A DNA stretch of 64,000 bases from Convolutriloba macropyga (taxonomy: Eukaryota). How positions within the stretch are numbered: the stretch's first letter is position 1; each line of letters begins with the position of its first letter. Positions 11,903-38,219 of the stretch are shown here, one piece after another. Location of the stretch: assembly GCF_964194025.1 (NCBI RefSeq), contig NC_134471.1:37758001-37822000 (forward strand), read 5' to 3'. Under the pieces are notes generated by a model. The model had not been told where the DNA came from. It ran no database searches and was given only the letters and a program-made list of their open reading frames with translations. The position numbers and the translations under genes were made by a program.

Positions 11903-12081
11903 CTGAAACAAGCAGATATCTAACCTCAGAGCATCATATCATTCATGATCTTGAAATATCAGTCGTACGAGATTGACAATCTAAACTTTTGAACAGGTTT
12001 TCTTGGACCCGATGAAATGTTGAGGAAATTTGCAGCAAGAGTAATCTTGTATAAATAATGACCAGAAAAAAAGCATCAAAC

Positions 12082-12156
12082 CGGATATACGCCTCGCGCT
12101 TCGTTGAGGTCTTCTCGGTGGCCCGTTCCTGCTACCCCAAAGCCCTGTCGTTTACC
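12082..12156 (-). CDS. Candidate prepropeptide gene, coding exon 3 (GKRQGFGVAGTGHREDLNEARGVYP)
   Basis: tttcag acceptor, CCG|gtttga donor, 75 nt phase 0, GC-rich island in AT-rich DNA; shares GFGxAGTG with exon at 37094-37171. Confidence 0.65.
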
Positions 12157-12619: not shown

Positions 12620-14880
12620 AACAAATCACAGTTTTCCCTTGCCAAACGGTTCATTTCAAAAAAACACACGTAACAAAAATCTGCTTAGAGAGCAATACCT
12701 CAATTCAGAATCTTTCCACGAGTTTTTCAAATTGAAAGCCGAAGTGTGCGCTGGCTATGAAAAAGATTTTGAAAAATTTCATAATCAATTAATTGAAAGC
12801 TCAACTTCAGAGCGCAAGAAATGGAATTTGATCAACGAATTAAGAAACTCCGTGAAAACGACAACTACGGTATACTCTTTAAAAAACTCTTTCAATGAAA
12901 TTATTACAGAAAAAACTAAAATAGCCAGCTTACTTAATTTAAAATTCAGCAAATTAGGAGAATTTTTTGAAAGTAAGAACTATACTGTAGATCTGCCTAT
13001 GGTTAGGCAAAAAAACATCTTTTCTTTTAAATTTGTTACTAAGTTCGAATGTCTTAAAATTCCCTGCTGAACTCAAAAGAGCCGACATCACTCCACTTTT
13101 TAAAAAACGAGACCTTGATGATCCTCTAAACTATCGACCAATTTCGTTAACACCAGCATTAGCAAAAGTTTTTGAATCTCTTATTAAACAACAAATCGAT
13201 GAATATGTTCATAAGAATGCCCTGCTTTCTAAAACACAGTTTGGTTTCAGAAAAAAAATTTCTACAACAGATGCTCTCGTTTATTTAACTGAAAAAATAC
13301 GATGCAACAAAAACGAGAAAAAAATTACTACAGCAGCGTTTTTAGATCTATCAAAAGCTTTTGACTCCATTAATCACAAGCTCATGATTCAAAAGCTTTC
13401 TATTCTTGGATTTTCGATACCAGCTCAAAATCTAATTACGAGCTATCTTTCAAACAGAACACAAAGAGTCATAATCAAAAATGTTAAATCAGGTTGGATT
13501 GAAGTGGCTCAAGGAGTTCCGCAGGGAACAGTCTTAGGTCCACTCTTGTTCAATCTATATGTTAACGATCTTAGCAACTTTTTGTCATGTGAAACAATAC
13601 AATACGCAGATGACACAGTACTATTAAGCTCTCATGATGAAGTTCTCAAATGCAAAGACGAGCTTGAGAAGGCCATAGAAAAATGCATACAATTTTTTAA
13701 ACTACATCACCTCAAGATCAATCCGGATAAAACAGAGTTCAATATTTTTGGTAGCTCTAATCCTCATTACGAAACGACATTAAAAGTGGGAGACAAATTA
13801 ATAAGTTCGAAAGCGGAAATCAAATATCTCGTTGTTAATATTGACAAAGACCTCAAATATCAAAAACAAGTAAAAATTCTTTTGTCAAAAATGGCCCAGG
13901 GCATTAAATGCATATATGCACTCAGGAACATAATACCCACTGGTTACAAAAAAATTACTTTGAACGCTTTTGTTCTCAGTCATGTTCAATATTCTTCTGT
14001 TTTACTTGCAACCATCAATCAAAATCTTGTAACGACATTAGAAAAGCAGTTAAATTGGGCCATCAAAGCTTGTTTTCACAGACAGAAATTTGACTCATCC
14101 TCAGATCTTAAAATGAACCTTGGTATACTACCTATTTCTTTGCTTTTTGATTACAGGGCTGCCGCTTACTGCCATAGTATCATGAATAAAAAGAAGCCTG
14201 CCTTCTCAAGCTCAGCTTTGAAATTACCAACCGCAAATTTTTATATACACGAGCGAACTCAAAAAATTTTTACCCAGACAATTTCAAAATGCAATTTGCA
14301 TGAAAAAAGTATTATTAGAAGAGGTACTCTACAGCACAATTCTTTCCCAAGAAATTATTTGTCAATGTCATACAGTCTTGCAAAGAAAAAATATAAGCTG
14401 TTTTTTCTTAATGAATACAAGAAGGACCCAAATAAAACCCAACATGGATCAATTACTTGGAAACATTTTAAATTCAATTAAATTTCTTTCTGTTTTACAT
14501 TAAATTTATGTTACTGTCGTCCCTCCCCTCCAATACAAGTGACTCCTCTATTGGATCGATATTTTAGTTATTATAAATTATTAGTTTCTCTTTTGTAATT
14601 ATCAATATTTTACACTGCCTATCTCTGTAAATTTTACTACGACTGAAACATTTACAGATTTTAGGAAAAATACAGTGTTCTTTTTTTTTCTCGTTGAACA
14701 ACATTTTGTCAAAAACGCACGAAAGGTAACCATTCTATAAAAAATGCAATTAGAGAAAAAAGGAACACGGAAATCAATCCATTAATGCTGTGCAAAACAA
14801 ATGAGAAGATTAAGCTAAAAAAATGGCTGTGCAAAAGTGTTAATAATATTAAATCCTTATAATAATAATAATATAATAAT
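12620..14880 (+). mobile_element. 5'-truncated LINE C with largely open RT and (TAA)n tail
   Basis: ORFs 12639-13070 and 13033-14481; taataataa tail at ~14860-14880. Confidence 0.9.
13033..14481 (+). pseudogene. LINE C reverse transcriptase domain (482-aa open fragment)
   Basis: NYRPISL, QFGFRK, FLDLSKAFD, GVPQGTVLGP, YADD. Confidence 0.93.
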
Positions 14881-18300: not shown

Positions 18301-18824
18301 TAATTTGGGAGCTATGGAAATAAATGGTTCAATCGACAAGACAGTGCAATTTCGTTAAAAAACAACAATTTTTACAAACGGAAGATGACACAACAAACAA
18401 TTTTCTGGAAGAAAGTTACAAAATAAGTTATCATCTCAATCTACTTTTCTCCTTGAATGTTTGAAAAAACTATTTCATTTAGGATTAATCTTTAGTTAAT
18501 CTTGACTTGAAAACACAGCTCGGTAATAATTTTGAATGAACATTGCTGTTCAAAATATTTAAATACTAAATGCTAAATGCCCTATTTTGGTTTTTTCTGG
18601 TTTGAAAAAAATCTACGAAAAAAATCTTTTCCACTTTTCCAGTTAAATTAAAGAACTAGGTAATTTGATGATCTGATATGACAAAAACTTTGGAAAAATC
18701 TTATACTTTTGGCAACTTTGTTTCCTTTCTCTGAAAATTCCATCAACAATCAGAATAATCTTCTTTCGTTTCCATAGAAATAGATGTAATTTTAATTATT
18801 TGCTAAACACACAAAAACAGTATC

Positions 18825-19124
18825 AGTAGTGATGTGTCTTTCTGGGCAAACTACGGGGGGGGACATAAGTGTCTTCCCGTGAACACTACGGGGGGAACAC
18901 AAGTGTCTTCCTGGGCAAACTACAGGGTGGGACATTTTGAAATTCTTTCTCCTTATTTCCCCTGCCATGCATGAAACTAATCTTAGGAAACCATTTTCCC
19001 TCCACTTGCGTGACTGGTTTGCCGCTTTGGGCTTGAAGCTATTTTAACTACCACCGCTTTTGCTTTGAAAGTGAATTCGTCATATGTCTGCGCCAGGGTA
19101 CTTTAATCTTGTTTTGGTCTGGGC
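18825..19124 (+). repeat. Left terminal inverted repeat of Maverick 1
   Basis: Reverse complement of 35842-36140; about 3 differences seen by eye. Confidence 0.96.
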
Positions 19125-19280
19125 AAACTACGGGGGGGGGGACATAAGTGTCTTCCCGTGAACACTACAGGGGGGGACACAAGTGTCTTCCCGGTCAAAC
19201 TACAGGGGGGGACATAAGTGTCTTCCCGTGAACACTACAGGGGGGACACAAGTGTCTTCCCGGTCAAACTACAGGGGGGG
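19121..19280 (+). repeat. Subterminal ~31-bp G-run tandem repeats (about 5 units)
   Basis: ctac(a)GGGGGGGaca(t/c)aagtgtcttccc units; the same unit occurs inside the TIR. Confidence 0.9.
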
Positions 19281-19494
19281 ATTTTTTCTTTGTTTTTCTC
19301 TGAGTCCTATGGAGGGGAGGGGGGACACTTGCATTTTAAAAAAAAAATCAGTTTAAGGAAACCAACCAGGAAGAACTTTAAAAACCTTGGGGGAAAAGGA
19401 GCTGTCATGTAGACACAAACAAAAAAAGTAATTATCATACCCTGCAAAAGTCACCTAATTTTTATTTGTCTATAATGCTTGCTCAAAAACAGCA

Positions 19495-19910
19495 TGACAA
19501 CAACAATCGCGACGGTAGATTTAAAAACCATTCATGAAATCTATATTTTAATAAAAACAGACTATCCAGAACATAATGAAAGATTTCTTTACTTTTTGGC
19601 AACCTGCTTGCACTTGGACCCTGATGTTAACCCCGAAATTGCACTAAAACTGAGGCCTTATGGTGGGATCATTGGAATAGATAACTCTTCATTGGATACT
19701 TATTTGAAATCATTTAAAGTGCTTCGCTTACATGCAATTCTTCATGATGCCTCTGGATTTATTGCAGAGTATAGCCAAAAGGGTCCAGGATACTCTTACG
19801 TTTTGCCTTGTCCAATCACAAACGCTTACGTTGGTCACCTGACAGGTTTGTTCTTCTGCATGTTCGTGAAAACTTTTAAACGTAACTTATTCAGTTTGCT
19901 GGAACGTTGA
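19495..19910 (+). CDS. Conserved Maverick accessory protein, tentatively PLA2-like (YGGxxG...HAxLHD...GPGY)
   Basis: Open ORF; motifs conserved in the Maverick 2 homolog at 57075-57491. The function is inference. Confidence 0.7.
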
Positions 19911-20497
19911 GTCCGGAGATTGTTGTTATAGATTTTGAAGGTTTTCGACACAAAAAGAGTGGATTCATTATAAAAGAATTATCTATTTGTTCAAACAACT
20001 ACTCAGACACGGTTCTTTTTCTTCCTCCAATTTCCTTTAACTCGCTGTCCTCGAGTGAGAGGAAATCGCATCAGTGGGTATCAAAGCATTTGCATGGTAT
20101 TTCGTGGGACAGCGGCAGCTACCCTTACTGGTTTCTATCACAAATATTTATAGCAATCAAGATCCGTTTTCCTACTGCTAAATTCTACGGAAATGGGAAG
20201 GAGAAGACGGAGACACTGCAAAAACTCCTTCAAAAAGACGTCACAAATTTAGAAACATTGCTATGTCCAAAAATTGAAGAAATCTTCACTCCAGTAGAGC
20301 ACTTGACTTGTTCACTTCATTCATCTATACTACCATTCAAACAAAAGAAAAAGCATTGCGCAAAGAGAAAGGCACAGGTGTACTTTTATTGGATAACACT
20401 ACCAACTAATGAATCGTCGTGTGGAGAAAGCAACTCCTTCAGTTCTTCAAGTGAATTTATCTCCAAATTTGACAGTATGCAGTTGCATTGCGAGTGA
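19907..20497 (+). CDS. DEDD/DnaQ-like 3'-5' exonuclease family protein
   Basis: VVIDFEGF..IIKELS Exo I motif, HGISW, C-terminal HCA; no in-frame ATG (ACG at 19904 may be a mutated start). Confidence 0.75.
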   Translation: MSPEIVVIDFEGFRHKKSGFIIKELSICSNNYSDTVLFLPPISFNSLSSSERKSHQWVSKHLHGISWDSGSYPYWFLSQIFIAIKIRFPTAKFYGNGKEKTETLQKLLQKDVTNLETLLCPKIEEIFTPVEHLTCSLHSSILPFKQKKKHCAKRKAQVYFYWITLPTNESSCGESNSFSSSSEFISKFDSMQLHCE

Positions 20498-20738
20498 TAA
20501 CCAGTTGACAGTGACTTTTCTGAAAGAAGAAAAAATTGATTCTCGTGGACAAACTATACTGAGGAAGCAGCAAATACTTTGTAATACTGCTGAAATTGAA
20601 ACACTAAAGAAATATCTTTCACTGCTGGAGTACTTTCAAATGTATCATGTCTTTACAAGAGAAAATGAAAAAACTGAAACTAACCCCTTTACCTACGCCC
20701 AAGTATCCAGTGCCAGTACCAGTACCCCTGGACGATGA
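20409..20738 (+). CDS. Maverick hypothetical protein (109 aa)
   Basis: ATG-started ORF in tightly packed cassette. Confidence 0.5.
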   Translation: MNRRVEKATPSVLQVNLSPNLTVCSCIASDNQLTVTFLKEEKIDSRGQTILRKQQILCNTAEIETLKKYLSLLEYFQMYHVFTRENEKTETNPFTYAQVSSASTSTPGR

Positions 20739-20913
20739 GTGTGTCCCCGATGAAATCAAAGAGGTAGTCAGAGAAGGAAAGGTGGAGTCAATTGTCTACT
20801 ATGGCAATGACTACGGATTCCGAGCGAACTATAAAGTAAAATATAAGAAGGAAGACAAAAACTCTGAATTTGTTACATACGAATTTTTTATGGTTGATGA
20901 ACTAACTAAATAA
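20647..20913 (+). CDS. Maverick hypothetical protein (88 aa, Pro-rich N-terminus)
   Basis: ATG-started ORF whose stop overlaps AATAAA. Confidence 0.55.
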   Translation: MSLQEKMKKLKLTPLPTPKYPVPVPVPLDDECVPDEIKEVVREGKVESIVYYGNDYGFRANYKVKYKKEDKNSEFVTYEFFMVDELTK

Positions 20914-20969
20914 ATAAACTAACAGAATTTTTGAATTAAATTCATTTTTGAAAATCATTTGCTTTCAAA

Positions 20970-21254
20970 ATGAGTCAATCAGGAGATCAATTAGATTGCG
21001 CTGGCAGTGGAGCAGGAATCACTGACTTGGTTTTTGATGATCAAAACCAAGAGAGACGGTCTTGGAGGTTTTGCAATTCTAGATTGCCGCGCTCTGAGGT
21101 AGTTTATTTTACACAAGTTTCGATAATAGTTTTTCTTATTGTAGTTTCACTGACCAAATTAGTTTTCTTCCACCTCGATTGTGAAGAATCAACATTTTGG
21201 TTTTCATTGCTATCGTGCACAGTTGGATACGCACTTCCAAATCCTAAGTTATGA
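20970..21254 (+). CDS. Small two-TM membrane protein coupled to ATPase
   Basis: Two hydrophobic segments, PRSEV...GYxLPNPK conserved in Maverick 2; ATGA overlap with ATPase. Confidence 0.8.
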   Translation: MSQSGDQLDCAGSGAGITDLVFDDQNQERRSWRFCNSRLPRSEVVYFTQVSIIVFLIVVSLTKLVFFHLDCEESTFWFSLLSCTVGYALPNPKL

Positions 21255-21982
21255 ATAAAATAGTCTCAACGAGTGATCGTCTCTTCATGGCAGTCTGTGG
21301 TCCTTCAGGTTGTGGAAAGACCGAAATTATTTTTCAAATGCTTCTTAAGAATACGTTTTTCCCGAATTTCAAGTCAATATACTATTTCTATCAACATGAT
21401 CAACCAAAATTTCAAACGATGGAGCGTAACTTGAACATTTATTTTACCAAATTCTCGGGATTTGAGTTCATTTCACAGTTGGAAAACTGTTTGCTCGTCT
21501 TTGACGATTCTTGCGAGGAAATTTTCAATGACAAGGAGTTTTCAAAACTTGCAACAGCTGGACGCCACAAAAAGATCAGTGTTATCTATGTTAAGCATAA
21601 ATTGTTTCAACAGAGTAAATGGTCTAGAACAATTGATCTCAACACAACACACATCATTTTGTTCAAATCCCCCAGAGATATACAGCAGATAAGTTATATT
21701 GGAAAACAACTCAATAACACAAACTTTTTAAAAGACAGCTATGATCTTGCAACAAAACAACCATTCGGACACTTATTGATTGATTTAGACCCAAAAACAA
21801 TCGACTCACTACGTTATTGTTCAAATATTGTACCACCGGGGCCAACAATTTTCTATCTGCCATCTTCCAAAGCTGTAATTAACCACCTCACAAATGAGAG
21901 AGAAAGAGATATGTATGCTGAGGCGAATGCTCGAAATGCCGGAAAGCATGCTAAAAAAATTCATCAAAAAATCATCAAATAA
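21251..21982 (+). CDS. A32/FtsK-HerA-type DNA packaging ATPase
   Basis: Walker A GPSGCGKT, Walker B LLVFDD, GRH motif; intact ORF. Confidence 0.95.
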   Translation: MNKIVSTSDRLFMAVCGPSGCGKTEIIFQMLLKNTFFPNFKSIYYFYQHDQPKFQTMERNLNIYFTKFSGFEFISQLENCLLVFDDSCEEIFNDKEFSKLATAGRHKKISVIYVKHKLFQQSKWSRTIDLNTTHIILFKSPRDIQQISYIGKQLNNTNFLKDSYDLATKQPFGHLLIDLDPKTIDSLRYCSNIVPPGPTIFYLPSSKAVINHLTNERERDMYAEANARNAGKHAKKIHQKIIK

Positions 21983-22190
21983 ATTTATAAAATTTCTCTG
22001 TGAATGCTTTCTCAATGTTATAAATGGAAACGTGCCCACAGATAAAAGTTTACTTGAAAACTACGAAACATCATTCCGACATTTTCTTTCCAAAGAGACA
22101 AGTTTGAGGAAAAAGCGTCAGCTATTGGTAAAAAATTTACATCTACTTCGAAGCATAAGTCTCTCTTGTTACCTTTACTTGAAGAAGTAG
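21894..22190 (+). CDS. Conserved basic Maverick protein (CECxxNVxxGNVP family)
   Basis: FLCECFLNVINGNVP motif; syntenic homolog 59673-59987. Confidence 0.75.
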   Translation: MREKEICMLRRMLEMPESMLKKFIKKSSNKFIKFLCECFLNVINGNVPTDKSLLENYETSFRHFLSKETSLRKKRQLLVKNLHLLRSISLSCYLYLKK

Positions 22191-22193
22191 TAA

Positions 22194-22989
22194 TGCATGC
22201 GGAAGAGTTTGTCTTGATACCGAAAAGAATGTTTGTGTCAAAACAACCGACTAGGACAGAAATTTTGGATAATCCCATTTATAAACAGAAAGCTGCTCAA
22301 TTGTCACTCCTCCACCGAAACAACCCAACCGATTTTGAAAGCAGAGAGGCGACTGAACAGGAAACTAATAAAACTAATATCGTGAACAAGCGCAAAAGAA
22401 GAAGAACAAGCAGTGTTGATTTAAAAAGTGAATTGGATGATGGAAGTGAAAGTGTAGTCTTTCTTTAGTGATGATGGCGAAATTGAGCCCTCATTGAAAA
22501 AAAGACAATCAGACTTTGACTCTATAATGTCAGAAGTAGAATTAATGGAAGAAAACAAAATCTAAAGAGCGGAAATCATCCTAAACAAGATATTAAGTTC
22601 AGAAACAGTTTCCATTGAGGACCCGAGTGGTTTCCTTTATATTGAGGACAAACCTATGAGAGTTAAAGTGTCAACTTTTTTGTACAATTTGCAACAGCCG
22701 ACAAAGAAAATTGACCTAGCCGTGTACACAAATATTTTGCACGAACTCAAGATACCCCCGCACTTAGTATCCAACACTCATGCTAAAAGTTCTCAAAGAA
22801 GTTTACAGCGATGAGGAGAAAGAAGAGGAAACCGAACAAATTCAAGGAGAATCAGAAAAACAACAAAGAAGCGAACAGAGCAGTGGAAGTCAAAGTAAAG
22901 CCTCCGGATCAAAAACTGCAGAACCAAAAAATCAAACAAACAAAAAGACAGAGCAGGAGACGAAAGGAAAAAAATGGGCTAACTATTAA
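22194..22989 (+). pseudogene. Maverick conserved hypothetical protein, disrupted
   Basis: MHAEEFVLIPK...TFLYNLQQ...LVSNTHAK spread over frames; homolog at 59977-60700. Confidence 0.7.
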
Positions 22990-23908
22990 AGATGTGAAAC
23001 TACTGGATAGACTCTATTCTAAAGGTCCAGCATCATTCGGAAGTTCAAAGCGATTAAAAGATTTCGGTAAACTGCCAATGACAAAAGTCAAAATGTATTT
23101 GGAAACAAAACCATCCTTCACAAAATATCGTGCACAGCGGTTGAATTTTCCGCGATTAAAAGTAATCGTCAACGATCTGAATGAAATCTGGTCTTTAGAT
23201 TTAGCTCATGTTGATAAACTTGCAAAATACAATTGTGATGTTAAATATTTGCTCGTAGCAGTTGACTGCCTCTCGAGGTATCTACGTGTTGAACCGTTGA
23301 AAACAAAAAATGCAACAGAAACCCCAAAGGCCTTCCGAAAAATGATCAAACACAAGCAACCACAAAAAGTTTGGGTGGATGATGGTACTGAGTTTTTGGG
23401 AGCTTTCAAAACACTCTAAAACAAACGAGGAATTCATTTGTATAGTACTTTCAGCAAAAAGAAGTCTGCGTTTGCAGAAAGAAACATCAGGTCACTTAAA
23501 AATATTATTTACCGATATTTGGAGGAAAAATGGACGTATTCTTATATTAACAATTTGGATCAATTCGTAAAATCTATCAACTCCCGTGTTAATCGTGTCA
23601 CCAAACTTGCTCCTAACAAAGTTACCAAAAAAGATGTACCAAGACTTGTATCATTAACTGTGGAGACACGTCGCGGTCAAAAACCAAAACTTTACGTGGG
23701 TGATTTTGTTCGAATCGTTAAAAAGGAAAAAACTTTCCGAAAAGGATACAAGCAATCTTTCACTGACGAAGTTTTTGAAATTGCCGGTATTCTGACGCTT
23801 AATCCACCTACATATTCTCTTATTGATTCTAATAAAGAAATTATCCAGGGCAAGTTTTACCAGCCAGAATTACAACTAGTACGAGAATCTCCAAATCAAA
23901 ATGAGTAA
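22811..23908 (+). pseudogene. Retroviral-like (rve/DDE) integrase with one in-frame stop
   Basis: WSLDL, VWVDDGTEF, AERNIRSLK; TAA at 23417-23419, reading continues in the same frame. Confidence 0.95.
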
Positions 23909-24788
23909 TAACCGTTTTGAGGATGAGTTCACAGTACACGTTATATCATCTGCTTCGATGGACGTTTTCCAGGAAAACACTTAAGCAAATTTCAGAAATT
24001 TTTTTAATGATGAAATTAATCTCACAGGAGACTGGAGAGTGGCTCTGAGTGAAATCATTTTTCCAACGAAAATTGAACACATAGTTAATGGAGATTTGGT
24101 TGCGTTCAGTCTCAGGGGATATGAGGAATCACAAAATCGCGCAATTGGATCCAACGTCATTTCACGACCCTACAATGGAGAAAAATTAGCGTTTATGGCT
24201 GGCACTTATGATACAGTTGCTCAACTTTTAGCAAATATCAAGAGAACAGTTGGACTGCCTAACTTCTCTTTCCGAGAAATCAAAAGCAGTGGGAAATACG
24301 AAATGATTTTTGGTAAATACGAGGGAATTACCTTTCCAAGTGAAGAAATACCCAGTATAATTGGCTTTAAAGGTATTCCAGATGGTTACGGAATTCATAT
24401 TGGATACAAAATGATTCCCACAACAGCGAACCGATTAATGATAAATGATGATACGAAAGCCTATTATGGTGATTTTCCAGCAGACCTTTGCGCTGGAAAA
24501 CATTTAATTTTTATTTACACAAACATTATTGAGTATCAGTATGTGGGTGATGCGAAAGCACCATTGTTAAGAGTCATTGATTCAAAACAGCGTTTGAAAA
24601 ACGGTAGCGTTTGTGAGTTGGAGCGCACTCACAGGATAGTTTTCACAAATTTAGACTACAAAAAACTACTTTCGAACACCATTCAATCAATATCAATTGA
24701 GCTGCGAACTGAAACGGGACAGTTAGTTCCCTTTTCGGGGACTGGTAAAGTTATTTTAACACTACAATTTAAAAAATTTGGTGATTAA
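23901..24788 (+). pseudogene. Minor capsid protein (penton) with one in-frame stop
   Basis: FTVHVISSASM..EN..ANF, GDWRVALSEI, FIYTNII, VGDAKAPLLR; TAA at 23982-23984. Confidence 0.9.
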
Positions 24789-25229
24789 ATGGATTCCTAC
24801 TACGCAAACCAAGCATCATCATTGCCTCACTTTTCCGGTCACTATAGACAAAGAGGTAGCGGTTTTGGAGCATTAGCTAGCGGTATTGGACGTGTTGCAC
24901 TGCCACTTGCTCGGAAGTTTGTTCTGCCAGCAGCTAAACGCAACGGAAAAGAACTGTTGCTACTAGGCGTCCCTGAGTTGATGGATGTTATCGGTAAAAA
25001 GAAATCACCAAAGCAAGCTCTAAAGAGCACCATATCAAACACAGTGAAAAAACAAACAGGTGGATCTTTAGCCCTCCGAATGCGACGAACGAGAAGAATA
25101 AGAAGGAATTGAAAACGCTTACGCGCTGGACCAAGGAAAACAACCAAACGCAAAACCACCATTTCACGAAAAAGAGTACCAAAAAGAAGTCGGTCGGACT
25201 TCTTCGCCAAAGTAAAAGATGATCGGTAA
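24789..25229 (+). pseudogene. Basic core/membrane-active virion protein (YY..Q..QRGSG family), premature TGA at 25110
   Basis: QRGSG and QTGG adenain-like sites; R/K-rich tail continues past the stop to RSRSDFFAKV, matching the intact 62414-62863 homolog. Confidence 0.82.
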
Positions 25230-26528
25230 TATGTTACCAGCCGAAGCAACGCATAGTTCGTTGGATTTATTCGAGGAACCAGCTCTCCTTGTTACATTTG
25301 ATGGAAGTTTTTGTCAGAAATTGGGACCGGTTTACAGCCCTAATGGACCAATGCCAGAGTTTGAAGTTGCAGGAGACCGCAACAATTTCATTGATCTCCA
25401 AAAAATTTTTCTTGAAATCAAGTGCAAGATTGTACAGTCTTCTGATGCTGATTTGAAATATGACAACACTGCTGCTGCAGATGTGACTAAAACAGACTCG
25501 CCATACTTTTGCAACAATGTCCTACATTCACTTTTTTCTGATTGTACAGTATCTGCTAACGGTTTGAAAATTTCAAGTGCCAATGGTAACTATGCCCACA
25601 AAAGTTTCATCGAAACCGAGTTTTCTCACAATAAAGATGCCAAAAGCACGTGGTTGGCATGTCAAGGTTATTCTTATGAAGCAAATCCCGGGGAATTGCA
25701 GCATCCGAAATCACCAGACGAAAAACTTTAGTCAGAGCATCTGCTGAGTGTACATTTTACGGAAAGGTGGCGGTTGACTTCTTTACCTGTGATCGACATC
25801 TTCTCAGTGGTGTAACACTCCGAATCTCTTTTCGGCGATCAATTGACGATTTTTCTTTAATTTCAGATGACGCTGCAAAATCCTACAAAATAAAAATTAC
25901 AGAAGCTAACTTATATGTGCGGAAAATGACGCTGAACGATGATGTTGTGTCAGCAATAGAAAAGACCCTGCTGTCAAGTCCAGCATCCTATCCTTACCTA
26001 GAAACGATTACTAAAACTTTTCTGGCTTCTGCCGGTTTGCAGAGCTGGAAGCAAGAAGATGTTTTTGGCAGAGAACCCATTAGAAGACTCGCCATTTGCT
26101 TAAACACGAACGAAGCTTTCCTCGGAAGCAAGCTGCTTAACCCATTTCACTATAGAAAATTCAATTTGGAACAAATTTGCATTTATCGTAATGGTCTTCC
26201 CGTTGCCGATAGTCCTATTTCAACTGATGATTCAAAACGTGTTTACTTTAACACTATGTCAGATCTAGCCTATATCGACAATGGACATGGAATCAGTCTA
26301 GAAGACTACCCAAATCATTTTATTATGGTTTTCGATCTGACGAGTACTCAGCAGGCGTCTCACGATTTTATTCACCCTGAACTTACAAATTGTTCTGTAT
26401 CAATTGACCTAAAGTTTTCTGCTGCCTTAGTTCATAATGTAGAAATATTCATTATTGGGGAAAAAGCAAGTACCATTTATATTGATTCGGCGCGGAAAGT
26501 TTCAAAGAATCATATTTTAACAAACTAA
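25219..26528 (+). pseudogene. Double-jelly-roll major capsid protein, frameshift near 25700
   Basis: SSLDLF, NNVLHSLFS, YAHKSFIET, EANLYVRK, NPFHY, FDLT motifs typical of Polinton MCP. Confidence 0.92.
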
Positions 26529-26746
26529 TTGACGAAGACAACTTGAACTCTCTAATTCAGAGATGTTCGGAACTCAAATACAATTTTTGTGGAGTTTATG
26601 CGGCTGATAATTTTCCAACCAACTTAACCAACAACAGCTTCATTATAGTCAATATTTCAACGTCTGCATCAATTGGAACCCATTGGATTCTTCTCTGCCA
26701 AAAAGATCAAAAAATTATGGAACTGAACACGGTTTTGTTTGTTTGA
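26528..26746 (+). pseudogene. Adenain-like cysteine protease, C-terminally truncated
   Basis: GVYAAD, FIIVN..S.SIGTHW (catalytic His); no downstream DS.G or catalytic Cys motif. Confidence 0.85.
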
Positions 26747-26939
26747 GAAAGTCTGCTGAGAACTCCGACACGTCGATAAGAACATGGTAATGATTAGTGG
26801 GGTTGTAATCACAGTGGACACTCTCAAAATGCATGCAAAAGGCAAAGTTCTTGAGAGAAGAAAAATTAGGTTTTTCTTCCGATATAAAAATATTTAAAGT
26901 TTTTCTGAAACTGCTTGAAGAAACCCGGAGAACGCTCAT
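26715..26939 (-). pseudogene. Truncated ORF with HUH-like motif (NHYHVLI)
   Basis: ATG start, HxH followed by hydrophobic residues; stop coincides with the protease truncation point. Confidence 0.45.
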
Positions 26940-26972
26940 ACATCGCTTCCACCATTTTCTAATATATTATAA

Positions 26973-27305
26973 TTAGTCTGAATTGTCGTGCTCGTCGTCT
27001 TTTTTAGTTTTACGTCTTTTCGCTGCTGGAGCTTTGTTAGCTTGATCGTTTTCAGTAGCTGTACCTACAGCAGCAGACCGTATTTTTGCTGACCTTTTTG
27101 ACAAAAGCTCAAACTCATCTAAAGTTGGAGCAATTCGTTGTTGAAGTTCATATTCCTTGTCAACTTTTTTAAATAGCTTGAGAAATACATAGGCACCCGT
27201 ATTTTCATAAGACTTCACTGTTGCGCGTATCAATCTTTTCTCTGTTCTAGAGATTTCAAAATACACGTCTCCAAACTCTGCGTCCTTATCAGCAGTAAAT
27301 GGCAT
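26973..27305 (-). CDS. PC4-like single-stranded DNA-binding protein (putative)
   Basis: FEIS..RLIRATVKSY..YVFLKLF..I..TLDEFELL resembles the PC4/Sub1 pattern; basic NLS-like tail. Confidence 0.6.
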   Translation of the reverse strand: MPFTADKDAEFGDVYFEISRTEKRLIRATVKSYENTGAYVFLKLFKKVDKEYELQQRIAPTLDEFELLSKRSAKIRSAAVGTATENDQANKAPAAKRRKTKKDDEHDNSD

Positions 27306-28097
27306 TTTCAAGAATTGTGTACTTAAACTGTGTCAAACTACCTGTTTTGAAAGAATTTTCGGAAATGATTTTTATTTACAAGTACCTTTAACACACAAAA
27401 CACAAACAACACTTTAAATGCTTACTACTGATAAGAGCGCTCTTGGTTAACATTTAGGCTTCTGATTTGAATTTGAATGTAAGTCTAGGTTATAAAACTT
27501 GGCAATTTTGTCAAAATGTAAGACAAAACTCGTGACCCTCACTTAAACTGTTTTATTGCGTTGGTAATAAAGTTTATATTTGGATAAAATTACTCAACAT
27601 AGAGCAGGAACTAGTACAATTTAATGGAAAACAAATGTGACCTCTGGGTGTGTCGATAGATAAGAAAGAACTCACAATTACACAGCAAGCGTTTGATAGA
27701 AGGCTTTAGGCCTTTGATATAACACAGTCTATTCTAAACAAAACTGATTGTAAACTTCTTGCTATTGCATACATTATAAACGTTAGTATACATATCAACA
27801 TAATAAAACTGAAAACTATTGTGTTTAAGTCTGTGTAGATAAGACTTTCTTATACACTTTGCAACTAGTTACAAAAACATAAAATTATAACACAGACAAG
27901 TTCATGTAGAGTAAACATTCACAATTGCAGTTACAACCCTTGACCTGGGTGTGTTAAGTATTCAACAAGTTTCACACACAAGTGTTGCTAATGGTGGTAT
28001 TTGCCGGATTTTATTTATTCGTTTTAAATTCAAGACTATAGTTGTTCAGTTCTGCTCCATTTTAAAGAGAACAAACTGTAAAAGTGCTTTAAAAATA

Positions 28098-28871
28098 ATG
28101 TCTTACCACATTCTTTGCGAGTCTGAAGATTCTTGGGAGCGCAGTATTGTGTATCACACTCAATACGAAAACTACATAGTTTTTATACAGCAGAAGAAAA
28201 ATAGCGAAAAAGGCTGTTGGAGATCAGTTGAACATTGCATCATACCAAAAATGTTCATGAATTTTGTTGCAACACTACCAGATAAATACGTATCTACAGA
28301 AGACGATGGCACAAAAACTGTGCTAACAGCTGGAGGATACAGTGTTCCTCGGAAAATGCCCCCACTTTTCCCCTATGACATTGAGACACTTTCTCCAGAC
28401 ACAAAGAGACTTTTGTACCGATACGATTGTGACTGTGTGCCTATTTTTGAGAATCAACTCGGCCAATTCCAGGCGATTGAAGAACTGGCTCAACTTTGGG
28501 GAATTCAACCTTCGCCAACTTCACCAGCTACTTCACCAATTGGATCACCGGCAACGAACGACCCAAGCCCCATTGTTACGCCGGAAACAACAGATACAAA
28601 ACGAAAAACAGTCATAGCTTCAATCATGGACAAAATGTCTTGGAATATGGGGTCAACCGAGCAGTTCGAACCGAATTTCGATAGTTCTCTTCTTTCAGAG
28701 ACAACTTTTGTGACACCAACGCAGAGTGCAGAGAATGCTACAGTATCCTTCGAAACGTACAGAACCTCAAACAACACAACACCCTTGAATTCAGAGACTC
28801 CCAAAGTATGCAATGCTCCACAGAAAAAACGTGCCAATCGAACACCACTTATAGATATATTTGAGGACTAA
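28098..28871 (+). CDS. Maverick hypothetical protein with S/T/P-rich disordered C-terminus
   Basis: Open ~257 aa from ATG 28098; AATAAA at ~28928. Confidence 0.7.
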   Translation: MSYHILCESEDSWERSIVYHTQYENYIVFIQQKKNSEKGCWRSVEHCIIPKMFMNFVATLPDKYVSTEDDGTKTVLTAGGYSVPRKMPPLFPYDIETLSPDTKRLLYRYDCDCVPIFENQLGQFQAIEELAQLWGIQPSPTSPATSPIGSPATNDPSPIVTPETTDTKRKTVIASIMDKMSWNMGSTEQFEPNFDSSLLSETTFVTPTQSAENATVSFETYRTSNNTTPLNSETPKVCNAPQKKRANRTPLIDIFED

Positions 28872-29179
28872 CCTGAACTCGGAAAACTGAAACTTTTTGA
28901 AACTGTCACCATTTCTATGAACCTCTAAATAAATTGTGTGCTTTAATAATATTTTTTTTTGGTGTGAAAATGTAAAAAAATATCAATTTGCATTTCTAAT
29001 TTTAATTGAACATCATAATATCTCTTTTTTGTTTGGAGAATAAAACGGGAAAGAGAAGGCAGAATCAAAAAGCATTCCGTCAAATTGTTACTTAGTGAAC
29101 GTTGGAAGAAAATCTCATATGTTATAACACAAAAAACACAGCAAGCAAGCAAAGTTCTGTTTAAAACACATATTGAAGA

Positions 29180-30130
29180 ATGAAAGTTTTTGAAACAGTA
29201 AAAAGTCAATTTTCATATGTAGGAATTCTGTAAAAGTGCAAAAATCTCACTACTTAAGTTGTTACAAAAAAATTTTATTTCACTAAACATAGGGTAAAAA
29301 AAGGTTTTTAAATGGTAAAAAGTCAATATTCATATGTAGGAATTCTGTAAAAGTGCAAAAATCTCACTACATAAGTTGTTACAAAAAAATTTTATATTAC
29401 TAACAATAGGGTAAAAAAAGGTTTTTAAATGGTAAAAAGTCAATTTTCATATGTAGGAATTCTGTAAAAGTGCAAAAATCTCACTACATAAGTTGTTACA
29501 AAAAACTTTTATTTTACTAACCATAGGGTAAAAAAAGGTTTTTAAATGGTAAAAAGTCAATTTTCATATGTAGGAATTCTGTAAAAGTGCAAAAATCTCA
29601 CTACTTAAGTTGTTACAAAAAACTTTTATTTTACTAACCATAGGGTAAAAAAAGGTTTTTAAATGGCAAAAAGTCAATTTTCATATGTAGGAATTCTGTA
29701 AAAGTGCAAAAATCTCACTACTTAAGTAGTTACAAAAAACTTTTATTTTACTAACCATAGGGTAAAAAAGGTTTTTAAATGGTAAAAAGTCAATTTTCAT
29801 ATGTAGGAATTCTGTAAAAGTGCAAAAATCTCACTACATAAGTTGTTACAAAAAACTTTTATTTTACTAACCATAGGGTAAAAAAAGGTTTTTAAATGGT
29901 AAAAAGTCAATTTTCATATGTAGGAATTCTGTAAAAGTGCAAAAATCTCACTACTTAAGTTGTTACAAAAAACTTTTATTTTACTAACCATATGGTAAAA
30001 AAAAGGTTTTTAAATGGTAAGAAGTCAATTTTCATATGTAGGAATTCTGTAAAAGTGCAAAAATCTCTCTACTTAAGTAGTTACAAAAAACTTTTATTTT
30101 ATTCATCATATAGTAGAAAAAGGTTTTTAA
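29180..30130. repeat. Internal tandem array, 8 x ~117 bp
   Basis: GAATTC recurs at 29223, 29340, 29457, 29574, 29691, 29807, 29924, 30042. Confidence 0.97.
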
Positions 30131-30964
30131 GCTTCTAAAGAAGTTCATTTTCTGTAAATAGAATGCATTTAGTTATTCCACAACCACATTTATGGTTTTC
30201 ACCAAATGACATTTGGTAAATGTGTTATCAGTACCAGTGGTAAATATCAAATCCTTAATTTCAATTGCTTTCGACCTATCTTTGTCTTATATATAGCTAC
30301 AATTTACTTTTGCACAATGATAAGATAGAGTGTCTTTCATGGAATTACTTTATGTTCACATGAAACACGCTGATAATAGCAGTTTAGAACAATTTTAGTC
30401 AATGGTATAAGAATACTGCCAAGTATTCCAGAAACCTAAAAGTGAAAACTGATTAAAGGTTGAAAATAGAACGGAATTTCGATACAACCCTCGAAGAGTA
30501 GAGAAAGTCTAAAACAACTTTTGTAGAAGAGTATTTTGAACACTTGAACTGTTTCCCGACAGAAAAGAGTATATTGTAAGTATACTGCGTTAGCTATGTT
30601 TCAGTTGTGGTAGATAACAGATATAACTAAAATTACACAATAAACTTTTACCTTGCATGGAAATAATGGAAATGAGTAGTTCTGAAACATGAACACACCG
30701 CTTATTGGTCAAAAGTTAACATGGGTTAAATTTGACCTACACTCCTACCAAGATTTGCGTTCCAAACCTGGCAAATAGTGTCAAAGTGCATGCACACCCT
30801 TATAGGGAAATTTTTCTCGTGTAAAACACATTTTTCAACCAACTAACACTCCTTCTAATTGTACCAGTTAACTGTTGTTACAATTTGACTTCATTTGCTC
30901 AGTCGTTTTCTCAGTAAAGCAGTCAGTTGAATTTTCGAAAGAAAAAAATTGAAAAAACTTAAAA

Positions 30965-33900
30965 ATGACCCAACCGTGTGAAATTTGCGCAAAGGAACTG
31001 GCCGACAAAAGAAGCCTTCGAAGACACAAACAGCGCGTTCATGGAGTTCAACCGGAATTCCCAGCCTTGGAGTGTAGCACTTGTGGTTTTGAGACTCACA
31101 ACATCCTGATAATGAACCAACACACCCGACGGGAGCACGGTGGAAAGTCCAAAATCAGTGTGCCTACTGCACTCTGGTTTTCAAAAACCAGAGTAACTTT
31201 CATCAACATCTGAAGAATGCTCACGGATTGCCTGTTTGGAACAGAGGCCAAAGCAATAATCAAGCAGTACCAGTACAGTCGGCAATTCGAGGTGCTCTGG
31301 AGATCTACGAGATTGAAGGTAATGATCACACTGACGTTTTGTCTTTCATGAACTCTTCGAGGTATCACATCAATGAACATATACGTCAAAAGACCCTCGA
31401 AGGTCCTCAGAAAGTTCAACTTTCTCTAAGCATTACACTCACAAAGGGGATTAATGAAGAAGAAAAACACGTAACAATTTACGCTAACGCTGAAATGCAA
31501 ATTGTGTACACGGATGCTCTCTCCGAAGAGCAGTTCTTTGAGTCCGTGCAGCATATTGTCAACGTGGTTTCAATGTATGCCACAAGTGGAAGTGGTTGGA
31601 TTATTGAAAAGGTAGAAAAACTCGAAATTCGATTTGCAAAATTCAACCCTATTCGGGGATCAACCTATATAGCACTTCCAACTGAACTTAGCGCTCTAAA
31701 ATGTCTGCTCAATATCCGAAACTTTAACGATCCAAACTGTTTCTTGTATTGTTTCACGGCTGCCTACCATTTGCAGGGGAAAGGTTGCCCCCTCACGCAA
31801 CCTGGGGATCGGTACAGCAAAAAAACAAACCCCGCAACATACGCTCGCTCAAACCCTTTCACTCATCAAGCAGTAGGAAATTTCCCGATGCCGATGCCAA
31901 TTGACAAAATAAGCGCGTTTGAAAGATGTAATGAAGTAAAAGTGAACGTTTTTCGATACGAAAAGAAAAGTTTGTATCCTTTCCGAATTTCAAAGCACAA
32001 CTCTGATTTTGTCGTTGATCTCCTACTGATAACTGATGGTGAACGTTATCACTACGTGCTGATAACGGACCTGGTAAACTTAGTTCGAAAAGTGCAAGGG
32101 CGACAGATTGATGCACGCGCAAAAATCTGTCGCAACTGTTTTCATGTTTGCTCGAACAACGAAACGCTTCAAAAACACGAAAAACTTTGCTATCACTTCG
32201 AAACTTGTCAAGTTCTGCTACCTGAGCCGGACAGCAACAGTCTCGCTTTCAAAAAATTTCAAGCAAAAACAGCTCTTCCACTGGTTGTCTATTTTGACCT
32301 AGAGTCAATCATTGTTCCGGTATCATCAGTTGAACAAAACCCACAGACTTCAGGGACTCGTGTGTTGGACAAACACATTCCGAGCGGTTACTGTTATGTA
32401 GCCATTTCACATGGAAGTCCAAATTTGGAGTTCTTCCATCTGTACAGAGGTGAAGATTGCATGCAAGTCTTTGTGAAGCAAATGGAGACACTGGCAAAAG
32501 ATATCTACGAGAAAAAGCAAAAATACAGGTACTTCACAGGAGCAGTTGGACAAGCAAAAGAGCTTGCGACTCACTGTTGGATATGCGAAACTAGTTTTTC
32601 TGCGGACAACGAAAAAGTCTTGGATCACTGCCATTTCTCAAATCAGTTTCTTGGCTGGGCTCACTCAAAGTGTAACCTACAGCGCAGAACACAGAGCTTC
32701 GTCCCCATAAGCGCACACAACTTGTCAGGATATGACTTGCATCATGTTGTAAAGAGTCTACATCACTGCAACTCTAACAATAAATTTTCAATAATACCTC
32801 AAACTGATGAGAATTATATCAGTTTTAGCTTTAAAGTTTGGATCAAAGATATTGTGAACAAAAATCAAAACGTCATACCCATATACGAAGAACTTCGCTT
32901 TATCGATTCTCTTCGCTTCATGCAATCGTCTTTAGATAAACTAGTTCAGTCTTTGCCTGAAGACAGTTTCGATATACTCGATAACCATTTCGAATACTGT
33001 GACCAAAATGATGTGAAACTACTGCACGGTAAAGGATTCTACCCCTACTCCTACATGGACACCTTCAGAAAATTCAAGCTAAAAAAATTGCCGCCTAAGA
33101 AGTGCTGGGTCGACAAACTCAAATCAGGAAAAGTGACAATAACCGAAGCTGACTACGAAAAAGCAAAGCTGATCTTCGAAAAATTTGATTGTAGAAACAT
33201 GGGTGAATATCACGATCTGTACTTGACAGTCGACACCCTACAGCTCGCCTGCTGGTTTGAGCGGCTACGAGCAGTCTGTCTGGACTCGTACAGCTTGGAC
33301 TGTGCTCAATATCTATCAGCACCACACTTAGCGGGCGATGCCTTTCTGAAGATATGTCAACCCGACCTGGAACTTCTCACAGATCGCAACCATCTTGATA
33401 TAGCAGAAGAATTGTTGCGAGGGGGTATGTCCTCGGTATACACAAAAAGACTGTTCACGCCAAACAACAAATATCTGGAACGTTTTGATGACACGCAAAA
33501 ATCAACATATGGTCTCACCATAGATGCTAATAACCTCTATGGTGGGATCATGAAGGATTTCTGCTTGCCACTCAATTCATTCCAGACGGACACAGAAGTG
33601 ACGATTGAACAAATTTTGCAAACTCCAGACGACGCTGAATTTTGACATATCGTCTGCGTCGACTTGGACTACCCCGACTCAATTCACGATGCTCACCAAG
33701 ATTTTCCAATGGCACACACCCGAGAACCTGTAGACAGCATGTGGTTGAGTAGCTATCAGTTGGACCTTTTGGAAGAATATCATCTCCCAAAAGTTTCAAA
33801 GTGCAACAAACTGCTTCAAACACTCTATGATGAGAAGGATTATACACTACACTATGTAACGTTGAAGATTTATGAACGAAACGGCCTTAAAGTTTCAAAA

Positions 33901-35303
33901 CTGCACAATGTGCTCAAGTTCAGACAATCAAAGTGGATGGCAAAGTATATCGAACTGAACACAAGATTGCGGCAAGCAGCAACCAGCAAAATTGCTGAAA
34001 AATTCTTCAAACTCATGAACAACTCTGCTTTTGGAAAGTGTTGTGAAAACATGCGAAATCGAGTTAACGCTTTCCTGGTCCGAGATGAACGAGCTCTCCT
34101 CAACCACAAAGATAAGTTTAACATGAAATCCTTTAAAATTTTTGATGAAAACATGGCAGTTGTGACTACAAGAAAAACGAAAATAAACTGGGTGAAACCT
34201 ACAATAGTTGGTGCTTCAATTCTGGATCTTTCAAAAGCGTTCATGTTTCGATTTCACTACGAGAATATGAAACAGTGGTTCAAGTGTGAACTTTTATACT
34301 CTGATACGGACTCACTTACCTATGCTGTTGATTGTGATGACTTGTATGAGGAGCTAGCACGAGCAGAAGTCAACACAGAATTCGATTTCTCCAACTACCC
34401 TTCTGATAACGCATTGTACAACACAGAAAATCACATGGTAACTCTCAAATTCAAAGACGAACTGGCAGGGGTGGTAATGGAAGAGTTCTGTGGCTTGAAA
34501 CCCAAAATGTATTCAATACAAACGAAGGGTATGTGTAACATTATATTTTATTAAAACAAATTCCAGTTTTGAAACTAACCAAATTCATGGAAGCGTCTTT
34601 TTAATATAACAGAAACATTGAAACCTAGATTAGGAAAGCACATAGATTAAAATAGAAAATAGATTGATTGTAATGTTCTTTCAGACTGTCAGAAGAAAAG
34701 TGCAAAGGGAATAACACATGAGGTGCAAAAGCAACTAAAGCACGAGGTCTTCAAGAGAGTATTGAACAGCGGGGAGATTGTCCGCGTCAAAAATGTGACC
34801 ATCAAATCAGAGAAACATGAGTTGATGACACTGGAACAAAACAGATTTGCGCTTTCGGCCTACTGTGACAAGCGGTTTTACCTTGACCCAATAAACTCCC
34901 TACCATTTGGCCATAACAATATTACAGAATTTGCATTTCACAATGTTATATTAAATGATTCAGATGGGAGTCAGAAAACGAAAGCGACTTGGATTCAATT
35001 TCACAACCAACCCCGGAAAATGTGATATCTGAAAACAATAGTTTTTCTCCCCCCGATCCAGGATTCAATCAACCCGATTATTCAGAAAGTGAGCTTGATC
35101 AAGATATTGTTGACTGGAATGAACCCTACGCAATTTCCCCGCCAGCCCTTGACAGTTCTTTTCTAGAATTGGAAGCAGTTGAAAGCGAAGCAAGCAATAA
35201 TAGTGATATGTCTGATTTATCTTCAAGTAATAGTCTCATAATAGAACCAACACCAAAAGGCAGACGTCTAGTATTATACAATTCAAGCAGTGAAGATAAC
35301 TGA
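30965..35303 (+). pseudogene. polB: Protein-primed family B DNA polymerase (ZnF-TP-vOTU-Exo[EndoVII]-Pol-acidic tail), one intron, disrupted
   Basis: YFDLES, HNLSGYD, DHCH..AH..CNL, IDANNLYG, KLMNNSAFGK, YSDTDS, KSAKGI; frameshift ~31150, TGA 33643-33645, intron 34529-34684, frameshift ~34965. Confidence 0.96.
34529..34684 (+). other. Putative spliceosomal intron in pPolB
   Basis: G|GTATGT donor, ttctttcag| acceptor, AT-rich with in-frame stops; removal gives YSIQTKDCQKKSAKGI. Confidence 0.85.
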
Positions 35304-35427
35304 TAACTTACAATTAGTTGTAGTTGAAGTGCATGGATAAATTATAAAAAGCATTCATATAAACTAAATACAAATTAATGTAAAAATTGAAACTTTATTA
35401 TAAAAAGAAGACAAATAAAAGGTTTCT

Positions 35428-35775
35428 CTAACGCTGTTTTATCGGGATTCCACGACGACTAAGAATAATTTCCATGGGGGAATGACTTTTAACATGGTTA
35501 GTCAAACCATTTTGCTGGGTAAAAACTTTGAAACAAATTTTACACCTTAAAACAGGGTTTTGGATAATTAGAGGGGGCGCAATAACTACTGAATTTTCAC
35601 ACTGGTGGTATCGTGTGTCAATTAAAAGCCAAATTTTCCGATTGCAGTTTTCACATTGATATCTAAAATTGTTGGGGTGTATTTCTTCAAAATGAGTAAA
35701 AAGATCTTTAGAATTTAAAAATTTGGAGCGACACAGAAAGCAGTCCAACAAGCAACGTTTTCGCCTTGGTGGCAT
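35428..35775 (-). CDS. C2H2 zinc-finger protein (3 fingers)
   Basis: CxxC-F-L-H-H patterns; convergent with polB, AATAAA on both strands at ~35393-35420. Confidence 0.85.
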   Translation of the reverse strand: MPPRRKRCLLDCFLCRSKFLNSKDLFTHFEEIHPNNFRYQCENCNRKIWLLIDTRYHQCENSVVIAPPLIIQNPVLRCKICFKVFTQQNGLTNHVKSHSPMEIILSRRGIPIKQR

Positions 35776-35841
35776 TTGGAATTCGTATTCTGGTATTGGG
35801 TGTGTAGGTTCTGTATAACTGTGGGTAAAATGTTGAAATGG

Positions 35842-36140
35842 GCCCAGACCAAAACAAGATTAAAGTACCCTGGCGCAGACATATGACGAATTCACTTTCA
35901 AAGCAAAAGCGGTGGTAGTTAAAATGGCTTCAAGCCCAAAGCGGCAAACCAGTCACGCAAGTGGAGGGAAAATGGTTTCCTAAGATTAGTTTCATGCATG
36001 GCAGGGGAAATAAGGAGAAAGAATTTCAAAATGTCCCACCCTGTAGTTTGCCCAGGAAGACACTTGTGTCCCCCCCGTAGTGTTCACGGGAAGACACTTA
36101 TGTCCCCCCCGTAGTTTGCCCAGAAAGACACATCACTACT
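35842..36140 (-). repeat. Right terminal inverted repeat of Maverick 1
   Basis: Ends ACTACT followed by TSD AGTATC. Confidence 0.96.
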
Positions 36141-37093
36141 AGTATCTACTTTAGATACTAATTTTTGACGGTTTAATAGCTAGAAAGTTATGAAATTCTC
36201 GGCTTTTTGCGACATAAGAAACAGAACTTTTGTCAAAGCTCAAAATTAAAAACTTGTAAAAAATTATGCGAATACATGTTGATGGAAAATCAAATAATTG
36301 GCTTCTTTGTTTATTGCCTTCTTTTTTAAATGTTTGGAGGGTCATTTTTCTCTCCAAACTGTTTTTGTTGTTTTAATATTTTTGTTTTTACGACAATGTT
36401 AAAAATTGAAGCGATGCAGAATTGGTAATTTTCTGTAGTTTGCTCCGTTCTTTTGTTCGTGTTCAAGTTTGTATTCATAGATTTTTAACTTCTGGAAATC
36501 AACAAAACTCGTAGTTTCTAAAAAGCTTTTTTCTGATTTCCTTAACTTGTAGATAGCTTGGCACCATTGTTTGTTAAGATGTTGTTATGAAGTCCGAAGA
36601 TTTTGACGATGCCAAAACAGAAGAGATTTTTTTCTCCAATCTGAAATCTGTGTTGTTTTTATTTGCTCTACTTTCATTCAATTGATTTTTTTAAAAAGAA
36701 GGGAATTTTTTCTAAAACCTCACTTTTGCAACCAAACATAGAATATGAATAAATATCCGGATTGCAAATCTCGCTAGTAATTTTGACTTGGATTTCATCC
36801 AAAAAAACTGACCCTATTTCAAAAATTTTGCTTCCTTTCTATCAATAATAAAACTTCATCAAAATTGAAATTAATTTTTTCCTAAAAAATTTTTACACTC
36901 GCTTGTGATAAATATCTGAAGATAGATTGTCCATGCTACGCTTTAACCGAAGCAAACAGCGTTGTTCATTATTTAAACAAGAAATTTCCATTTTTGATTT
37001 TCAGGATTTCCGTCATATTCACATTTTCGATTGCCACCAAGAGACCACGTCAACTGCCTTCATATCAAAAAGATATTAGGTTTGTACTCTTAC

Positions 37094-37587: not shown

Positions 37588-38219
37588 CCCGGGTCGAGGT
37601 TTTGACAAAAAATAATGTAAGATTAGCGGTGAATAGCGGTGAAAAAAACTTTTTTCACCGCAAAGCGCCCGCATCTTTTAGCGTTGAATGCGCTGAAAGC
37701 GGTGAATTTTTGTACGAATAGCGTTGAATTTTGCGGTGAAAAATTTTTTTTCACCGCATTCACCGGAATTCTTACAAAAAAGAAACTGCCGTACAACGGT
37801 TCGAACCTCTACCTCATGCGTGTGACCAACTTCGTAATCCACTGCGCCATCTGTCACTTACTTCAATGATATTTCCTGTGAATATAAGATAAGCGTTGAA
37901 ATTAGAGCGGTAAATTTTTGTAAGATTTGCGATTTTAGCGGTGAAAAAATTTTTTTCACCGCATTCTGCTGGTAGCGATGAAAAATTGTTTTTCACCGCA
38001 TTCTGGTGGTAGCGGTGAAAAATTTTTTTCACCGCATCCTGCTTGTAGCGGTGAAAAATTTTCTTTCACCGCTTAAGCGCTGAAAAAAAATTTTTCACCG
38101 CTTAAAAGTTTTTTTTTCACCGCATTCATCGCATTGAACGCAAATCTTACACTTTTACTCAAATTCACCGCAAATCTTACATCTTTTAGCGATTTTTAGC
38201 GGTGACACCTCGACCCGGG
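37588..38219. mobile_element. Non-autonomous DNA transposon (MITE), 632 bp
   Basis: 13-bp TIR cccgggtcgaggt/acctcgacccggg, flanking CACA direct repeat, many internal gcggtgaaaa..ttttcaccgc palindromes. Confidence 0.88.

Follow-up and report, generated by a model that had tools for sequence, protein, structure and literature searches.

A defective Maverick/Polinton copy in the Convolutriloba macropyga genome and a predicted fixed-site intron in the polymerase gene of its family

The window analyzed here is a 64,000-nucleotide stretch of the Convolutriloba macropyga genome (RefSeq assembly GCF_964194025.1, contig NC_134471.1, positions 37,758,001 to 37,822,000 of the forward strand), and all coordinates below are window positions. 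It contains a Maverick/Polinton of 17,316 bp (18825-36140), bounded by terminal inverted repeats (TIRs) and a 6-bp target-site duplication (TSD), with traces of six core genes alongside some ten accessory open reading frames (ORFs), as the initial annotation had stated. The element is one defective copy of a multi-copy family and not a complete provirus. Its protein-primed DNA polymerase gene (pPolB) is likely interrupted by an intron found throughout the family, whose other copies in this genome are referred to as siblings. The ends, the core genes and a deletion private to this copy are as follows (aa, amino acids).

18819..18824, no strand: left TSD, AGTATC
18825..19124, + strand: left TIR, starting AGTAGT and containing 34-35 bp G-tract repeats
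19118..19300, + strand: additional subterminal block in which the 34-35 bp repeats of the TIR recur, at the left end only in the window copy; sibling ends contain the block too
21251..21982, + strand: A32/FtsK-like packaging ATPase, 243 aa, the sole open core gene (Pfam Pox_A32, E=2e-6, above cutoff)
22780..23908, + strand: integrase of the rve (DDE) type, with D, D and E motifs and a sibling length of 372 aa; frameshift near 22785, stop at 23417
23901..24788, + strand: putative minor capsid protein (penton), 295 aa, so named from its size and its position directly upstream of the major capsid gene; stop at 23982
25219..26528, + strand: putative gene for a 436-aa major capsid protein, frameshifted near 25692
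26528..26718, + strand: adenain-like protease, N-terminal 64 of 143 codons, without an ATG at the sibling start position
26718..26719, no strand: junction of the private ~730-bp deletion, whose segment is present in 6/6 spanning siblings
30965..34528, + strand: pPolB exon 1, with three C2H2 fingers, vOTU-type Cys/His, Exo I/II, an endonuclease VII-like insert, Pol A/B/C and KxY
34529..34684, + strand: predicted phase-1 intron of U2 type, 156 nt long, reading GTATGT...TTTCAG and placed five codons past the KxY tyrosine
34685..35303, + strand: pPolB exon 2, ~205 codons in siblings
35842..36140, - strand: right TIR, terminating ACTACT
36141..36146, no strand: right TSD, AGTATC

The two TIRs are identical in 297 of 300 alignment columns, with two mismatches and one gap (2/299 bases differ), in agreement with the ~99% identity given initially. 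The boundaries first proposed, 18819..36146, proved right and include both TSD copies. From the flank composition, an exact AGTATC at the right flank would arise by chance about once in 3000. Among seven siblings, six likewise carry matching 6-bp flanks at loci of their own; in the remaining one the right TIR is doubled and the flanks do not match. An empty-site comparison yielded nothing, because the 300 bp to the left of the element are single-copy in the same genome. With AGT-repeat TIR ends, a 6-bp TSD in the window copy and 6/7 siblings, and integrase, pPolB, ATPase and protease genes, the Maverick/Polinton (Polintoviricetes) features that could be tested are present in the element and its family, and the call made at first is correct. 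All core genes lie on one strand in this element.

Sibling ends show some variation of their own. TIR length varies by end repair among siblings L001-L002 (G000:C6) and L010 (G000:C2): in one of these the TIRs reach ~470 bp, each end carries the subterminal repeat block and the PolB half is absent, and one carries a tandem double TIR at one end. The TSD CACATT is common to two siblings with otherwise different flanks (L005-L006 and L014-L017), and another sibling has a TSD of the related GTTGTT/AACAAC type; target preference or chance are both possible explanations.

The window copy is dead. Of the 14 distinct lesions counted in it, nine fall within core genes, and five of the six core genes are broken: the integrase, the two capsid genes, the protease and pPolB. 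The ~730-bp deletion removes protease residues ~65-143, among them the Asp and Cys predicted to be catalytic, together with most of a 229-aa minus-strand gene. Lesions in pPolB comprise frameshifts near 31145 and 34963 and a stop at 33643, and both the protease and a DEDD-like nuclease gene lack the ATG used by siblings. In the initial annotation the element was complete, its virion module full and its lesions few. That the copy is a complete, nearly intact provirus is practically untenable: its 99% alike TIRs, exact TSD and remnants of six core genes would suit such a provirus, but the deletion passes through the protease, the integrase and both capsid genes are broken, and the lesions are many. 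A search for intact siblings, proposed at that stage, recovered the family; none of the seven siblings examined has every gene at window-family length. Separately, sibling L014-L017 (G000:C13) has a ~19-kb insertion within its integrase gene.

The identity of pPolB rests on its Exo and Pol motifs and on 5315 homologues, many with PF03175, a profile that matched in some homologues and gave no match with this family's own pPolB. At the OTU-like place, the Cys is kept in 67/68 and the His in 86/87 aligned rows (without a profile or fold match), and the endonuclease VII-like insert (E=0.004) keeps its H in 115/116 and its C in 116/116 aligned rows. Conservation of exon 1 ends five codons past the KxY tyrosine, and the frame resumes at an SAKG motif after a 156-nt AT-rich segment that holds five in-frame stops in the window copy. 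A GT..AG segment lies at the same codon and phase in 30/30 family loci, the window included; it is 156 nt long in 27 of these and 130, 155 and 165 nt in the other three. Intronless PolB relatives pass directly from KxY to SAKG, so removing the segment restores colinearity. In the DNA, then, the segment has the GT donor, pyrimidine tract, AG acceptor and frame restored on removal that characterize a U2 intron. We consider 34529-34684 likely to be a family-wide intron rather than a lesion, a feature that the initial annotation had missed.

The same site was followed into other families. Twenty further loci were hand-picked from PolB places, three being older members of this family and 17 coming from six other families that are 56-64% identical to it across the exon-1 piece. 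AG stands at the homologous acceptor in 20/20 and GT at the homologous donor in 18/20, with lengths of 97-209 nt, and in-frame stops occur in 9/9 tested introns of the other families. Between families, the intron alignments score z -1.6 to 3.2, as against 6.9-16.8 (51-69% identity) for the upstream exon. Introns that do not align between alignable exons present the pattern of an old intron, with selection presumably acting at its ends only. From these comparisons at the DNA level, pPolB likely carries a spliceosomal intron at one fixed site in seven families of this genome.

Among 120 PolB homologues labelled by hand for a break at the intron site, 28 break there, 82 are continuous, five break elsewhere upstream and five are unclear. 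Two of the site-breaking homologues read through the intron and then regain the conserved motif. Several of the 28 look like other families of the same genome and are not indicators of host range. A tree of 80 rows (79 of the 120 homologues plus this family, with 41 lower-scoring homologues left out) was built using FastTree. All 29 breaker rows fall within the 55-row side of a split with a support of 100, with intronless subclades interspersed; the outer 25 rows, including named cnidarian proteins, are continuous in 25/25 cases. One intron gain with losses is the simplest reading of this tree. As a separate observation, a well-supported PolB subclade (P0174-P0177 and P0179) breaks ~85 residues upstream, which suggests a second, independent intron site.

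The window copy belongs to a populous family. The PolB piece was found at 90% identity or more in at least 50 of the 150 places listed, out of 3291 genome candidates that span many other families, and 42 near-full TIR rows came from the 40 scored of 230 candidates. Divergence between the window copy and siblings is 1.5-2.9%. TIR mismatch within copies (29/2640, 1.10%) is close to that between copies (398/33213, 1.20%), which indicates that most divergence arose after insertion; lesions found in the window copy alone likewise point to decay at that stage. The recent integration claimed at the outset holds in relative terms, given TIRs that differ at 2/299 bases and copies 1.5-2.9% apart. Values of pN/pS (nonsynonymous over synonymous differences) against siblings are 0.37-0.63, with a neutral expectation of 0.74 ± 0.12 (the pairs are not independent), and these lower values suggest some selected divergence among source lineages. 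Scans of viral contigs gave no free-virus relatives. Mavericks are described as abundant in the acoel Praesagittifera, at 4.5% of the genome, in the text of PMC6451197.

The best explanation takes the element as an integrated, now dead member of a multi-copy Maverick/Polinton family whose polymerase has a likely ancestrally inherited spliceosomal intron, a reading to which we give a probability of roughly 0.85. The break in PolB could instead mark two genes, an insertion lesion or a recent introner. Introners are known within dinoflagellate Maverick-like proviruses, as described in 10.1101/2025.03.18.643946, and no joint at 34528/34685 was seen in four contig sets spanning the intron, sets that are uninformative on splicing. 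We find these alternatives very improbable, since seven families, with segments that have no common sequence, all place the canonical donor and acceptor at precisely the homologous codon and in the same phase, where introners would be expected to place similar sequences at varied sites, and since colinearity with the KxY-to-SAKG run of intronless relatives returns once the segment is taken out. A different question is whether, instead of a single gain followed by losses in places, the intron had repeated gains at a favourable site or passed between families through recombination. Parsimony needs eight changes, at least three of them forced by well-supported branches, and intronless subclades lie among intron-bearing ones, both of which speak for repeated gain or spread. 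Confinement of every breaker row to one side of the tree, with 0 among the 25 outer rows, and identical site and phase in all DNA examined speak against it, and we judge it unlikely, though not remote.

Under the preferred reading of an inherited intron, and by analogy with the known family, the protein-primed PolB would copy the linear element starting at its AGTAGT ends, the rve integrase would insert it through a staggered cut of 6 bp, and it may be packaged by the module made up of ATPase, capsid and protease. For Polintons in general, the texts of PMC11161782 and PMC8097293 describe protein-primed replication from repeated end motifs by a terminal protein (TP)-vOTU-exonuclease-polymerase polypeptide, insertion by an integrase, and a virion module. 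Given the intron, PolB would be transcribed in the nucleus, and host splicing would be needed for the full-length product; unspliced RNA would meet a stop eight codons into the intron and lose the last ~205 residues. After insertion, decay of the window copy would have been mostly neutral, and the copy could now move only with proteins supplied in trans by other copies.

The remaining features of the element are listed here.

19494..19910, + strand: ORF138, open, full length in 6/7 siblings
19904..20497, + strand: 197-aa DEDD/MAEL-like nuclease gene (labelled from its motif), without an ATG at the sibling start position
20409..21254, + strand: three small conserved ORFs of 109, 88 and 94 aa, the third with hydrophobic segments
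21894..22190, + strand: open basic ORF of 98 aa that overlaps the end of the ATPase
22193..22989, + strand: 265-aa conserved ORF; frameshifts near 22456 and 22785, stop at 22563
24789..25229, + strand: 146-aa basic ORF in which a cleavage site rich in glycine is predicted; stop at 25110
26719..26955, - strand: 5' remnant of the 229-aa gene, whose N-terminal fold is predicted to be HUH/Rep-like; a frameshift lies near 26890 and the remainder is deleted
26973..27305, - strand: 110-aa conserved ORF, open
28098..28871, + strand: 257-aa ORF with an S/T/P-rich tail, open
29183..30130, no strand: AT-rich unit of 117 bp repeated 8.1 times in an internal array
35428..35775, - strand: 115-aa C2H2 zinc-finger ORF, open

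The 229-aa gene has 3057 candidate places in the genome. Its predicted structure reaches 85 in the predicted local distance difference test (pLDDT; 32 for the single-sequence prediction), and in the structure comparison the top 14 VIA rows were all HUH/Rep or origin-binding domains, with a Rep-like fold first-ranked in three structure libraries. Residues ~18-110 resemble nanovirus (6h8o), circovirus (7kii) and pMV158 RepB (8amu) domains as well as papillomavirus (HPV) E1 (1r9w) and SV40 large T antigen (LT; 1tbd) in predicted fold, with the HuH strand, whose histidines are kept in 67/78 and 66/78 homologues. Pfam and PDB sequence searches with the 229-aa alignment gave no match, and the Atlas search gave no usable match. 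The fold prediction and the motif make it likely that the gene encodes a Rep-derived DNA-binding (origin-binding) protein and not an active nickase. An active HUH nickase, through which excision or replication would gain a rolling-circle or rolling-hairpin step, would fit the conserved HuH motif, the top rank in three libraries and the thousands of candidate places, but the expected helix has no invariant catalytic tyrosine (motif III) among the 78 homologues (Y at position 82 in 41/78 and at position 85 in 13/78) and the family retains a full pPolB and AGTAGT ends; such an activity seems improbable.

For the core genes other than pPolB, the assignments differ in what they rest on. The integrase N-terminal piece matched Pfam rve at E=3e-6, below the curated cutoff, and the sibling protease (143 aa in 6/6 siblings) matched Pfam Peptidase_C5 at E=0.0013, also below cutoff. 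The capsid assignments are inferred from size, gene order and conservation; sequence searches of databases with the capsid proteins gave no match, and the closest named capsid relative is a 91% identical protein labelled as from the acoel Convolutriloba macropyga. A lesion in the ATPase was considered and rejected, as the 243-aa frame end is common to three copies and the ATPase frame of a second Maverick in the window is 246 aa long. In 2/7 siblings the ATPase is fused in frame with the overlapping 98-aa ORF (312 aa; region 21251-22190).

Several accessory ORFs carry tentative labels. ORF138 gave only weak leads in the Atlas search and has no database match, and its H..HD motif presumably resembles that of PLA2-like genes. 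The 98-aa basic ORF, which we take to resemble the adintovirus 'Cupiennin' gene, and the 146-aa basic ORF, which we liken to GasderminX/pX, have no match behind these labels; both would be a further likeness to adintoviruses. The 110-aa ORF has what we assume to be a PC4-like look, and a search for PC4 gave 1/18 homologues at E=0.13 and nothing beyond. The 117-bp array sits in the non-coding gap upstream of PolB and comprises 5-42 units in those siblings where the region is retained; a foreign insertion was rejected as its origin, since siblings carry the array.

Elsewhere in the window, a second decayed Maverick of another family occupies 57117-64000 (+ strand) and extends past the window end. 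It has 65-74% nucleotide identity to the element in aligned parts, and its genes follow the same order between an ORF138-like gene and the major capsid; a clear left TIR was not found for it. A 480-bp tandem repeat (2.3 copies, 55470-56592) lies immediately upstream of it. To the right of the element is a 37-bp tandem repeat with palindromic units (37634-38072), probably from another transposon or satellite. Decayed long interspersed nuclear element (LINE)-like endonuclease and reverse-transcriptase frames, recognized by inspection, flank the element at 8796-14481 and 43373-45938.

As a single insertion the element is ordinary, one dead copy among dozens. A broader proposal, about which we are evenly divided, is that it represents an animal Maverick clade, probably acoel-centred, with one fixed-site polymerase intron that would be older than ~55% PolB-identity divergence and lost in some branches, plus a Rep-derived origin-binding gene. 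If this is true, polymerase production would depend on host splicing, and the intron would tie the element to nuclear, spliceosome-dependent expression. The intron could also serve as a marker for following intron gain and loss in DNA viruses, and ORF-based surveys would class every member of intron-bearing families as defective.

In literature on Maverick introns, acoel Mavericks and HUH/Rep proteins, the texts report no conserved PolB intron or Rep-like gene for animal Mavericks, a point on which figures and supplements may bear, and the only printed intron case found there is that of the dinoflagellate introners (10.1101/2025.03.18.643946). Vertebrate Mavericks, as described by Barreat and Katzourakis (2021, PMC8097293), are intronless and 12.7-24.6 kb long when intact, with 96% of surveyed copies defective, and intact core genes are also called intronless in the text of 10.1101/2022.07.12.499685. 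The present family resembles those of PMC8097293 in its TIRs, 6-bp TSD, size, core gene set and prevalence of defective copies, and differs in its likely family-wide pPolB intron and in having every core gene on a single strand in the window copy. With that intron and five of six core genes broken, the window copy falls outside the 'intact Maverick' of that paper, and an old, position-fixed intron in a core polymerase would contradict the usual 'intronless' description.

Beta adintoviruses/Eupolintoviridae, in the accounts of Starrett et al. (2021, PMC8502044) and Buck et al. (PMC11071296), are alike in an rve integrase, an FtsK-like ATPase, an adenain, and a hexon and penton, here inferred; an OTU-type pPolB and the lack of a PF03175 match to this family's own pPolB would be further, putative likenesses. 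They differ in that the present family has an integrase without a C-terminal chromodomain, a predicted PolB intron and an HUH/Rep-like gene. Pfam gave no Chromo match on integrase positions 23420-23905, and the ORF ends at 23908 in the window copy and siblings. As the C-terminal integrase chromodomain published in PMC11071296 was not found, strict adintovirus membership does not hold and the element is not filed as such. Nematode and oomycete pPolB2 Polintons, as presented by Jeong et al. (10.1101/2023.08.22.554363), share an HNH/endonuclease VII-like pPolB insert, a likeness drawn from features, whereas three N-terminal C2H2 fingers and a predicted intron set the present family apart. Finally, the dinoflagellate Maverick-like proviruses of 10.1101/2025.03.18.643946 are similar in having spliceosomal introns, predicted in our case, inside the elements. 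Their introners are described as young, sequence-similar and mostly acquired after integration, whereas the intron predicted here appears old, sits at a fixed site and is unalignable between families.

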